Shown piece by piece: positions 19,427 through 63,718 of a stretch of 64,000 nt of DNA. The DNA comes from Amoebophrya sp. A120 (taxonomy: Eukaryota > Protista > Dinoflagellata): NCBI GenBank assembly GCA_905178155.1, contig CAJINV010000003.1, positions 2,375,065 through 2,439,064 of the forward strand, read 5' to 3'. Below the pieces are notes generated by a model that was not told where the DNA came from, searched no databases, and saw only the letters and a list, made by a program, of their open reading frames with translations. Both the position numbers and the translations under genes were made by a program. Position 1 is the stretch's first letter. Each line of letters opens with the position of its first letter.

Positions 19427-21374
19427 ATGGCGGCTATTACCGTTTCGACGGCGGAACCGCCACCAGGGCAGCAACAGCAACAGGCCCCGCAACAGGCCCC
19501 GGCGCAACAGCAGATGGGACAACAACCACAAGTGAACATTCAGGTCATGGTATCGTCTGTGAAAACGTCCCCGTCCTCCCATAGTCAAGATAGCAGTATT
19601 GGTACGCAGGCCATAGAAAAGTTGGCTGTTGCGCGTTACAGCTTTGTGTCTCTGTTGCTTGTAGTAAGGGAGTAGGTCGTAGTATTACGGCAGTTGTATT
19701 GATGAGGCAGATCACAGACCATCTCATGCTTTTGATCTTGATGCAAGCATGATAAGATTCTCAGATGGTATGCAGTAGACAATGCTCCTCATTGGGCTAC
19801 TGTGCGTGAGAAACTAAAATTGTAGGCATGCAGATGTGCGATAAAAAATATATGGGGGGACGTTTTGTTCACTGTTCATACATGGCGCAGCCACAGCCAG
19901 AAACGATGCAGGGGTAATGCTAAAAAATTAGGTTCCGACGGAAGCGGCACGTAGCACTTTCCCTTGAAACATGTACATGATACCGTAAATCGGATCCGGT
20001 TGATGGACCCCTTTTTGTTTATCTTGTGCTAGTACGAATGAAAAGACTTCAAATTTCAATATTCATTTCAGGTACGGAACTGCAACACAGTCTCTGGACC
20101 CTCTAGCGGATCCTCGATTGCCGGGGATGCGGATAGACTGGGTGCAAGGAACGGGCGTGTGCTGTACACCACCGGAGTTCGTCATTTCTGCGGGCGACAA
20201 AGTGTCAAAGGGGTTTCAAATGTTGAAGGGCGAGTGGCACGTGCCGGTCTGTGCGGGCGACTTGCATTTCAAGGTGAGATAGGTTGTACCTACTGGGGTA
20301 ATTATATCTGACACTGTTTCAACATCTATCTACACGAACTTTGGGCGAGGTCGACGTTGGCGCCATGAACAATGCAGTACCGTTTACGTCTTTTCTAGCA
20401 CAGCACGAGGGAAGATTTACAGATTCAGGTTATTTGCCTCTTTTTCGTTCTACTCTGCTGTAATTTTTTTCCCTTCAACACACGGCAGATCTTTACCATG
20501 TCGGGGCAGCTGTACCTTTCGAATGTACACAAACACGGGTGCTGTGAAGCCTGGTGGGACGTGGTCGCTCGCGGGCAGCACGTGGGGACCGGCAGAATTG
20601 TACAGTCAGGCTGCTGCAGCCAGGAATTTGAGCTCAAGGACGGTGCGGGATATCCAGATGAAAACTGCTGGCGGAGCCACATAATATCATGAGGTCGGCC
20701 AACAAATTGCAATTCCTTCATTTTCAGCTAGATTTTGGATGTAAAAACCACAGTGGAAAACAACTTTGGGTTTTCTGCATGATGATGATTCAATACGATA
20801 ATAGTGATTTCGAGAAAATTCCAACAATTCTGCTGTAGTGGTACCAACTAGTTTTCTTTTGGAGACCCCGCGTGTAGCATTCGCTATCCCACCAGCGACG
20901 AGGCCGTGCTGCGACTTGGCTTCACCCTTCGAATTCCAAGTCCTGGAGCCGAAAACGCGCACCTGTCTGGCGAGAGTAAAGTTTTTCCCTTTCTGCTTTC
21001 GAAGCCTTTGTTTTCAATGCTGTAGGTACGGAGGTATTATGCTTCAAAGCTACAAACTAACAGTCACCCACAGAAGAAGAATCAACGCTATTTCAACGTG
21101 AATCAATATCAACAATGCTCTACAGATCCACTTTCACCCCGCGGGCTGCTGCACCCCGGCATACGTAACCATCGACTTCGAGCAGGTACAGGGCTAAATG
21201 CATTTTTTGATGAAAACGTAAGCCCTAAATGTACTGTGGGACCTATGCTCGTCTTTTCCTGATCCCCACCTCCCTCCTCGTGTCCACCAAAAAAAACAGG
21301 TAACAAATCCCTGGATGCGTGTATTACTGCTATCGTTTGCGGCGACGCGAGCAACGTTCATCGTTCAACAGTAG
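19427..21374 (+). CDS. Small Cys-rich scramblase/LURP(tubby-C)-like protein, 7 inferred exons
   Basis: Exons 19427-19550, 19886-19913, 20072-20273, 20489-~20650, ~20871-20975, 21126-21185, 21300-21374 join in frame. P/Q-rich N-terminus, repeated xCC motifs (GVCC, GCC, PCC) and a C-terminal helix NPWMRVLLLSF. Family assignment is by architecture only. Confidence 0.6.
19551..19880. mobile_element. TAT...ATA introner-like element (330 bp), DR CATGG/CATGG
   Basis: Left end TATCGTCTGTGAAAACGTCCCC, right end GGGGACGTTTTGTTCACTGTTCATA. Removal with one DR gives IQVMAQPQPE in frame. Confidence 0.85.
20651..20865. mobile_element. Candidate degenerate introner-like element (215 bp)
   Basis: IR TATCCAGATGAAAACTGCTGG / CCAACTAGTTTTCTTTTGGAGA. 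Removal plus 5 bp gives in-frame KDGAG-RVAFAI. However the DR is decayed (CGGGA/CCCCG), and an in-frame GT-AG alternative (20643-20838) exists. Confidence 0.4.
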
Positions 21375-61400: not shown

Positions 61401-63718
61401 GATTGCGGTCACCACCATGGGTCCGCGCATGGGCAAGGCGCTGGCGTTGCTGTCGGTTATAGGTGTGACGTTCTGCGCTTCCATCGCCTACTGCAACCTC
61501 TGGGCCGACACGCTGCTGCCCATTCTCGCCTGTTTGCTGCCCGCGTCCCAGACCGCCGAGGTGCTGCAGAACACGTCCGTCAAGTCCTTCCGGACGCTGC
61601 TGATCGTCTCCTGCGTCGTATTGATCTTGCCACTCTGTCTCAATCGCACGATGTCCGGCGTTTCCACCGCGAGTCTCCTCTCCATTCTCGCCATGGGCGT
61701 GCTCATGCTCGTCATCTGCTTGTACGCTCTCAAGAACGCACTGCAGTCCGACAGCGAATGGACCATGGAGAACGGTGCGCTAGTGTTTCAGTGTGTGTTT
61801 CAGTTTGTGCTCAGTTGATACGATGCAGCTTATGGCTCTCGTTAGTCTCTTATTTTACTTGAAGAACATTCTGTAGAATGCCTTGAATTTGTACTAGTAG
61901 AAAAAGCAATTTCTAATTTGTCCGTGCGTTATATAAAAATCACAGAGAAGTACGAGTGGCTGGGTCCCAATCCGTTTACGGACGCGCGAAACCACCCTTG
62001 CCACGGGATTTTTTCCGACCAAGACGCGCACTGGGACGACCGGAAGACCTGGCTTAACGATCCGTCCGGTTTGCTGATGGGGATTCCGTACTTCTGCTCG
62101 GCGTTTTTGTGTCACTTTAACGTCTTCTCGGTGTTTGCCGAGATGCGCAAGCCGACGCGGGTGCGACTGCAAAAGGTGATGCGCCGCACCATGCTGATCT
62201 CCGGGAGCCTGTATTTGGTGATCGCAGCCTGCGGTTTCTACGTTGGGCAGAGCTATCATGTTGAAAAGCGCCCCTATATTTTTTCCCAGAACCAACGAAC
62301 TTGAAAGCATTTGTATTGCTGCAAAGCTCCTTATCCTTTCCAATGGAAACATTCTCCATCTTCTTGCATACTCTAGCGACACAAATTTTTGACGCAGACG
62401 ACAAGTTCTTTCCATTTGAAAAAACTTTGCACACTTGTTCTGGTAGAATCGGGGCACTTTTCACTTTGATAAGGGTTACGAGAAGTTTGCTTTCTCGGTT
62501 TCAGACAAGAAAGTGTCGGAGGTCCTCCCGACGCTGAGTAGAACGAGCGGACGCACACTGCTTTCGGAAGTGCCAGATGATTTTGGACAGCAGCTGCAAA
62601 CCCAAAAGTTGCAACAGGAGCACCGTGTTGTTCCAGGCGCTCGACCGGAGCGAGATGATAGCTTTTTCGACGGAATAGAGCATGCGAGCGGGATAATCTT
62701 CGCGGGAAAAGCCCCCGGAAGTCTAGCTGCTTCGTGGCCCGCGACTTCTCCGTCGATTCCCTCACAGTCAAGCAGTCATACCTCGTCGCGCGAGACACAG
62801 AAAATGATTATTCCGGCGACGAGCATTGTTTCCCATTCTGCAAAAATGACCGGGGTGAAAGACGACCAGAAATTAATCGGAGGTAGTACAACCACTGTAG
62901 TTCAACACCTCAGCTCCGCGTCGTGCGACATTGGGGTCCAGGGAAACATTCTCCAAAATTTTCCGCACGACGATTTTTTCGTGAATCTGGGACGGTTCTG
63001 TCTGTTTATCGCCTTGTACTTCACGTATCCGCTGCTAATCCACCCGTGCCGCGCGAGCTTGCACCGCAGTCTGTGCGGCGACACGTACCGAGCGACGGGA
63101 CTTTTACATGGTGGCGAGACCTTCCTGATCATGTTTCTCGCCAGCCTGACGGCGATTTTGGTACCAGAGGTGCAGATCGTGCTCGGCTATGCGGGTTCGA
63201 CATTTGGCATTCTGCTGGCCTTCGTGTTTCCGGCGTTTTTCGTGCTCAAGCTCTCGGTGGCCCGGGACAAGCGCAATCTGATCGCCTTGCTGATCTTCTT
63301 GTTCGGCTGCGTGCTGTGTGTGGCGACGACGGTGATTCAGACGGTGAATGAGGACGTGATGAAGAACGGGAACAACGTGGATGTCCTGCAAGAAGTAGAG
63401 CCGAAAACTACGTCAAACCAACCGGGCGAACGAGAAAGTGCTGCTGTCAGCTGGTACACAAACTACGTGGCGGTCGACGAGGTGACCAAGAAGCCCTTTC
63501 GCCAGGCTGCGCACCCCCGGCAGCTCTGTCTCACCGTGGAAGCGAGCAGCACAACGAAAGTCGAACGGCTGCTCAGATACGTTTCCTTGAAGCAACAGTA
63601 TGACGCCACGGGAACCCCGCCACCCCTCCCGAAAATGGAAAAGTCCTCTGCGTGGGCGCTCTCGCACGGCTGCACGAATGCGACAACCACGGGCGACGCG
63701 GATAGTAGTACATCATAG
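58484..63718 (+). CDS. Amino-acid transporter (Aa_trans / SLC38-like) with long disordered N-terminus
   Basis: Exons 58484-59384, 59670-59714, 60026-60478, 60764-61774, 61946-62253, 62477-63718. Motifs SIVGAGAVACPFAF, SYEEIA, AFLCHFNVF, QGNILQNF, TYPLLIHPCR and GSTFGILLAFVFP. Confidence 0.9.
59385..59664. mobile_element. Introner family C element (280 bp), DR AGACA/AGACA
   Basis: TIR TATCCTCAGTAAAAACGTACCCACACCA / TGGTGTGGGTACGTTTTTACTCAGGATA. Near-identical to 60479-60758. Confidence 0.96.
59715..60020. mobile_element. Introner family B element (306 bp), DR GACGG/GACGG
   Basis: TATCAGAATGAAAAATGCCCCCACCCC ... GGGGTGGGGGGCACTTTTGACTGCAATA. Removal gives DPKTGTVVY. Confidence 0.94.
60479..60758. 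mobile_element. Introner family C element (280 bp), DR CGAAA/CGAAA
   Basis: Perfect 32-bp TIR TATCCTGAGTAAAAACGTACCCACACCAGAGT. Removal gives TDDETAGTG. Confidence 0.97.
62254..62471. mobile_element. Introner family B-related element (218 bp), DR AGAGC/AGGGT
   Basis: TATCATGTTGAAAAGCGCCCC ... GGGGCACTTTTCACTTTGATA. Shares GAACTTGAAAGCATTTGTATTGC with 59715. Removing 223 bp restores the frame. Confidence 0.88.

Follow-up and report, generated by a model that had tools for sequence, protein, structure and literature searches.

A 64,000-nucleotide stretch of the Amoebophrya sp. A120 genome (contig CAJINV010000003.1, positions 2,375,065 to 2,439,064; the window) includes 15 transposon-like elements inserted in coding sequence, each flanked by a 5-bp direct repeat. 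Loss of the element plus 5 nt from transcripts is observed at six junctions and fits the RNA data at six more elements. We propose that these transposon-derived introns are likely removed by a modified U2-type spliceosome that cuts in one fixed register inside the 5-bp duplication, a reading to which we assign a probability of about 0.5. The elements are almost certainly the introner elements of Farhat et al. 2021, a class that was already known, and what is likely contributed here is the fixed register inside the duplication, the symmetry with respect to orientation, and the match of the element ends to the N-U-A of local donors.

Elements, host genes and transcripts

The 15 starts given in the initial annotation are all exact. 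The elements are 218-330 bp long, begin with TAT (TAC at 27057 and 34811) and end with ATA, and their terminal inverted repeats (TIRs) show 14-30 matches in 30 positions. The claimed 5-bp direct repeat, which has the properties of a target-site duplication (TSD), was confirmed: it is perfect in nine elements, has one mismatch in four and two mismatches in two. Taken together, the flanking repeats match at 67 of 75 letters for a length of 5 bp, as compared with 19-33% for lengths of 2-4 and 6-9, and random TA(T/C)..(A/G)TA pairs of similar length are flanked by a perfect 5-bp repeat in only 12 of 3222 cases. A scan blind to the repeat recovered ten of the 15 elements plus one false call, the remaining five having decayed arms. 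All host genes lie on the + strand and, as had been claimed, the host frame is open in every case (15/15) once the element and 5 nt are deleted, while an element that is kept introduces a stop codon after 2-50 codons. Inside the elements the motif TGT(C/G)ATG or its complement was counted 37 times, as compared with six times outside them; it is often located 41-45 letters from the end, and is likely a transposase or splicing-factor site common to the families. An Rfam search of the window produced no match.

The RNA evidence consists of four runs of assembled cDNA contigs from two samples of one study, their RNA nature being the guess of a program; we treat the contigs as spliced transcripts because ordinary GT-AG introns are skipped in them. 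Between 53.9 and 63.9 kb the cDNA alignments skip the element length plus 5 at six of six elements, and two GT..AG joints were found in the same runs. The weakly armed element at 54904..55135 (TSD CCAGA/CGAGG), located in a DUF1907 gene, is lost through the joint 54900>55138 (237 nt skipped). The element of the main family at 57304..57566 (TSD ACCGG/ACCGA) interrupts the end of a gene for a ubiquitin-conjugating enzyme (56710..57626, + strand), which also has a GT-AG intron at 56954-57154; its joint, 57298>57567 (268 skipped), was found in all four runs. Three elements with perfect TSDs follow: 59385..59664 (AGACA; joint 59378>59664, 285 skipped), 59715..60020 (GACGG; 59708>60020, 311 skipped) and 60479..60758, which has 32-nt perfect arms (CGAAA; 60472>60758, 285 skipped). 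The last, at 62254..62471 (TSD AGAGC/AGGGT), is located in an amino-acid transporter gene and shows the joint 62251>62475 (223 skipped). Retention of the elements in cDNAs, which would have marked the genes as pseudogenes, was not seen at any of these six junctions. The elements at 59385-59664 and 60479-60758 are near-identical, lie 1.1 kb apart in one gene and have different TSDs, which suggests a recent local hop.

Five more elements are located in a single host transcript (23394..29853, + strand) that includes six GT-AG introns and a 1183-aa frame. They were assessed by length sum only: the contig spans, 3947 letters in one run and 3972 in another, match the model, whose length of 3947 equals the contig span, only when 5 nt are added to the loss of each element. 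Three belong to the main family, namely 25881..26116 (TSD TTCTC, perfect), 26705..26982 (decayed arms; GTGCC, perfect) and 27057..27308 (opposite orientation; TCCAT, perfect); the element at 26149..26454 represents a second family with 62-nt arms (AGGAG, perfect), and the fifth is that at 28108..28418 (CAAAG/CAAGG). A further main-family element, 31259..31520 (TSD AAAAG, perfect), lies inside the C-terminal zinc finger of OTU1 (30233..31590, + strand, end approximate), where RNA contig pieces end at 31253 with 191 letters beyond. An element kept in OTU1 or in the ubiquitin-conjugating enzyme results in a truncated protein. For the remaining three, which lie outside the RNA comparison, removal is deduced from the reading frame: 19551..19880 (TSD CATGG/CATGG; decayed TIRs), in a small + strand gene and akin to 59385 and 60479 in opposite orientation; the decayed 34811..35116 (TGCCA/CGCCA); and 44855..45164 (TCGTT/TCCTT), of the same family as 59715, in a syntaxin-like gene. 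The latter is the middle one of three tandem syntaxin-like genes at 41500-49300 (one weak SNARE match), and the only one of them with an element. Same-length GT/GC..AG pairs at shifted positions exist for nine of the 15 elements and were considered as alternative introns; the RNA joints rule them out at 54904, 59715 and 62254. One raw RNA run was uninformative: of its 14 aligned reads most have 90-95% identity and lie inside elements.

When metagenomes were scanned with the end of the element as query, 136 loci (399 kb) were identified, with elements up to 97% identical to those of the window; the 80 loci that were listed come from one assembly. These related loci contain 331 copies, 246 of them flanked by a perfect 5-bp repeat and none by a perfect 6-bp repeat. 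After dropping 26 copies with two or fewer of five repeat letters matching and 16 that could not be scored, 289 remained, and leaving aside 84 without a confident strand gave the 205 copies used below. One copy of 972 bp (L041:3001-3972), with perfect arms and TSD and a longest open reading frame (ORF) of 86 aa, splits the RNA polymerase II gene RPB1 in a conserved stretch, and the same deletion rule mends the frame; if that RPB1 gene is in use, the element must be removed in the cell. We consider it very probable that the elements in general are removed in the cell. The proposal that they are TIR transposons of the non-autonomous kind, produce a 5-bp TSD and are removed from transcripts without any need for GT-AG ends is supported.

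Register of the cut inside the duplication

The cut can be placed inside the duplication because mismatched repeats reveal which copy survives in the RNA. The left-copy letters kept number 2-4 at 54904, 0-4 at 57304 and 3-4 at 62254, and at 57304 letter 5 of the right copy is retained. Therefore a register common to all, if there is one, keeps either three or four left-copy letters. The latter, register 4, is probably correct: one cut would fall 1 nt upstream of TAT and the other 4 nt downstream of ATA, defining an intron N-TA(T)...ATA-NNNN. At one related locus (L018:1778) a lysine common to A120, strain A25 and the orthologue from a transcriptome requires left letter 4, and the protein, 90-100% identical to that of A120 depending on the exon, is nearly invariant. 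Drift toward A/T in the intronic copy of the repeat also fits register 4 best, although weakly (28:15, one-sided p 0.033, the best of six tries), and at position 4 it runs 4:1 toward the right copy being intronic. Register 4 predicts T at intron position +2, which is found in all nine of the commonest A120 intron ends in Table S4 of Farhat et al. 2021 (PMC7789003); in A25, passages of the same paper give intron ends TT-NN and repeats that start with TTA.

The element ends were compared in this register with 25 local GT-AG introns, ten of them RNA-backed and 15 predicted. Of the 25 local donors, 23 have A at +3 but only seven have G at +5, so that their consensus includes little beyond GUA. All 15 elements share U at +2 and A at +3 with these donors, and this is not the case in register 3. 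The 3′ ends of the ordinary introns are rich in A and lack a pyrimidine tract, and C is found at -3 in 23 of them. One of these introns (45431-45757) starts with G-TAT, ends with ATA-ACAG and is flanked by two copies of the repeat ACAGG, in the register of the elements; it may descend from an old element that became canonical, or the CAG|G match may be due to chance.

Both orientations are equally common. Among the related copies one family is represented by 34 in the same orientation as the gene and 36 in the opposite one, and another by 9:9; in the window, 31259 and 57304 are opposite-orientation copies and removal fits both. Because both orientations are removed and neither GT nor AG is favored, the signals must sit in the symmetric ends. 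The claim that no sliding of the junction yields GT...AG fails once, at 28108, where the register 4 intron (28107-28422) has such ends; this is chance, and it is the only case among the 15 elements. The base that follows the cut is a purine in 123 of 205 copies, which is the background level. A scan blind to the termini found TAT..ATA in 268 of 402 calls, and among the in-register coding copies of that scan the first letter varied, as judged by eye, in no case on the donor side and in six on the acceptor side. Folding predictions indicate that the element ends pair, with z values of -1.0 to -12.7, compared with +1.8 to -1.4 for 12 ordinary introns; at 54904, which is still cut in register, the predicted probability of the terminal pair is 0.37.

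Candidate removal machineries

In the mechanism that we favor, a trans-acting transposase, likely an integrase-type DDE enzyme, would insert the element in either orientation at nearly any coding site and duplicate 5 bp, and loss of the element plus 5 nt from the transcript would then restore the original coding sequence. The mRNA would keep letters 1-4 of the left copy, of which three or four are seen in the RNA, followed by letter 5 from the right copy. The element's TA would provide U at +2 and A at +3, the sole letters that local donors share beyond the G at +1, and a spliceosome in which no U1 has been detected would read this U/A and disregard positions +1, -2 and -1, with the position of the 3′ cut set by its distance from the paired or protein-bound ends. 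As both ends are alike, each element would be an intron from the moment of its insertion. We rate a spliceosome as the removing machine at somewhat better than an even chance because the letters that survive are those of the local donor, A25 is apparently alike, and passages of Farhat et al. 2021 (PMC7789003) describe an A120 spliceosome with nearly all parts present and the U1 snRNA not detected. A relative with GT-AG introns has U1 (PMC12005148), and work on tunicates, in the passages concerned, indicates that a spliceosome can be retuned, that of Fritillaria having abandoned GT-AG (PMC13326754). The initial annotation had suggested a pathway that reads the termini or hairpin rather than standard splice sites. 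This is only half supported. The cut probably falls in a fixed register within the TSD, and there the TA of the element takes the place of the U (+2) and A (+3) found in local GUA donors; a test for selection on RNA pairing in the arms was negative.

Several observations weigh against a spliceosome or against parts of this scheme. The G at +1 and the final AG are normally essential for the spliceosome. Among the 205 copies +1 is G in 67 and the terminal AG is present in 14, with no pull toward either, and GT-AG ends occur in four, which is the level expected by chance; an indifference this complete is difficult to reconcile with a spliceosome. The ordinary introns used for comparison had been selected as GT-AG beforehand. 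Four of the six acceptor-end changes preserve a U-G pair, and pairing alone could explain them. A 30-bp stem would conceal both splice sites. In the arms G-U is not in excess over A-C (164:182), both the wobble test and its control being null; this, like the in-register cut at the weakly folding 54904, argues against a simple hairpin ruler. A fixed branch-point A at -7, present in 20 of 25 local acceptors, was considered and rejected after it failed to be replicated in predicted introns of the related loci (15 of 41 and 8 of 33); the intron predictor used was correct in seven of ten window calls, and in the second of these counts a motif filter dropped 24 of 57 calls. As for the register, one related locus (L078:1298) leans to register 3, the A120 homologue carrying the residue encoded with right letter 4, at a site that is unconserved in a protein only 85% identical, and the ends in Table S4 could stem from the habits of an aligner. 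No transposase was found in 43 ORF pieces of the window or in 80 of the 91 long ORFs of the related loci. The narrow provenance of the cDNA contigs described above counts on the same side.

The strongest competitor, which we regard as possible and less probable than not, is a second, non-spliceosomal route in which an endonuclease and an RNA ligase read the paired TA(T)/ATA ends, cut at a distance of 1 nt on the 5′ side of the stem and 4 nt on its 3′ side, and join the exons; a pathway of this type has been suspected for the nonconventional introns of euglenids. Were it so, Amoebophrya would possess a second chemistry of nuclear mRNA splicing, and TA ends in either orientation would make any insertion that duplicates 5 bp a scarless intron, a prospect that we put forward only tentatively. 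The lack of GT or AG bias, the equal orientations and the predicted pairing of the ends all agree with such a route, and there are precedents: passages on Euglena describe a code of paired motifs with fixed spacers of 3 and 5-6 nt (PMC12501133), and a review (PMC11282704) reports euglenid introns released as circles without a lariat. It would, however, turn the likeness of U at +2 and A at +3 to local donors, in A120 and apparently in A25, into a coincidence. In addition, the T of the donor end seems more constrained than the A of the acceptor end, weakly paired copies such as 54904 are cut in register, the arms lack a wobble signal, and no enzyme has been identified.

An unlikely variant, independent of the machine, is that three left-copy letters are kept or that the register depends on the element. 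The RNA is compatible with three or four letters, L078:1298 favors three, and according to a figure legend of Farhat et al. 2021 (PMC7789003) the position of the sites with respect to the hairpin varies; the near-invariant protein at L018:1778, the drift at position 4 and the T at +2 in Table S4 argue for register 4 instead. Very improbable is skipping at the level of DNA or transcription, by excision from the expressed template or by slippage of the polymerase over an extruded hairpin. The ends are indeed those of DNA transposons with TSDs, and rare empty sites could remain, as the joints listed are 15 of 369. Yet DNA-like contigs cross 19551 and 26705 unchanged and run through or into all eight elements of the stretch covered without differences, and slippage needs matching repeats, whereas repeats with three of five letters matching work and 30 of 55 mismatches would alter an amino acid. 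Hairpins together with direct repeats are the expected setting of template-switch artefacts. That reverse transcriptase merely switched templates across the hairpin between short repeats and the real mRNA keeps the elements is the most remote of the explanations: all RNA data are cDNA contigs and false introns confined to cDNA are documented (PMC8240250), but with the elements retained RPB1 of the related assembly would be broken and both OTU1 and the ubiquitin-conjugating enzyme truncated, junctions that share only 1-2 letters (62254, 54904) are still exact and in a common register, and one contig misses five elements.

Relationship to known introns and transposons

The assignment to the published class is based on three lines of evidence: the first exon of OTU1 matches a protein of Amoebophrya sp. 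A120 with 100% identity, the inverted repeats start with TAT and include a run of As, and the features agree with those of a published family, number 38. Passages of Farhat et al. 2021 (PMC7789003) describe 29,850 A120 introner elements of about 240 nt in many families, with direct repeats of 3-5 nt and inverted repeats that start with TAT followed by seven letters and then As; their removal is RNA-supported, the exact border being left unknown. The 205 related copies have A at element positions 11-13 in 180-195 cases. Host, inverted repeats, border repeat, families across the genome and non-GT-AG removal all agree, and we see no difference in kind from the elements in those passages; the initial annotation, which had mentioned introner elements from Amoebophrya, thus had before it the A120 class itself and not a look-alike. 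The same passages give the repeat as 3-5 nt and the border as unknown or variable, and contain no statement of orientation symmetry or of a fixed register. Dataset S2 of Gozashti et al. 2025 (PMC12130899), in the 50 of 58 A120 rows covered, classes most A120 families as TIR DNA elements, with superfamily mostly "Unknown" and automated TSDs of 2-6 bp; family 38 has a 5-bp TSD, TA/TA termini and integrase-like ORFs, family 19 has a TSD of 5, and the passages concerned offer no splicing mechanism. Within the passages of the open literature covered, including PMC11453091 and PMC12787238, neither a removal machine nor a fixed register for these introns was found, nor were the orientation symmetry and the N-U-A match, which the figures and supplements of Farhat et al. 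may already imply.

Among transposons, IS3EU and GingerRoot elements (PMC10045372, in part) have TA..TA termini, as do all 15 window elements, and transposases of the integrase/IS3 DDE kind. The TSD is usually 6 bp there and strictly 5 bp in the A120 elements, and for this reason we did not file the latter under either name. Neither a long ORF nor a nested element that would be convincing was seen in the long copies of the related loci (399-972 bp). As far as the passages of PMC12501133 go, euglenid nonconventional introns are alike in lacking GT-AG and in their paired ends, frequent direct repeats and spacer-set cuts. They differ in having a CAG/CTG motif, spacers of 3 and 5-6 and a purine that opens the next exon, where the A120 elements have TA(T)/ATA, spacers of 1 and 4 and no purine bias, so the euglenid code N3-CDG...CH'G-N5-6|purine does not describe them. 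Paired ends that bring the junctions together, as in euglenids, are suggested for A120 by the folding prediction only. In Fritillaria, according to passages of PMC13326754, most introns also lack GT-AG and the spliceosome is altered, and an origin from miniature inverted-repeat transposable elements (MITEs) has been suggested (review PMC11282704); these introns retain an end consensus of their own, AG-AC/AT, whereas the A120 elements are free at +1, -2 and -1.

Elsewhere in the window, two long GC-rich, low-complexity intergenic blocks with internal tandem repeats (~13150-17060 and ~38940-41250) both start near TAGGGTC; their ORFs have no Pfam match of note, and they are possibly larger unclassified mobile elements. 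The first is flanked by two intronless ORFs (11120-12571 and 17165-18568; 483 and 467 aa) without Pfam match, which by eye are likely paralogues. TTTAGGG-type heptamers, which we take to be telomere-like, bracket about 560 bp between genes at ~6597 and ~7150.

A fixed register narrows the question of what removes the roughly 30,000 introns of this kind in A120. Together with the orientation symmetry and the indifference to GT and AG it leads to the expectation of exact ends for the excised RNA, which make a lariat directly distinguishable from circular or linear products. The register rule would also help gene finders to place these introns correctly. The answer would be notable whether it proves to be a spliceosome that ignores positions +1, -2 and -1 or a splicing pathway of a new kind.

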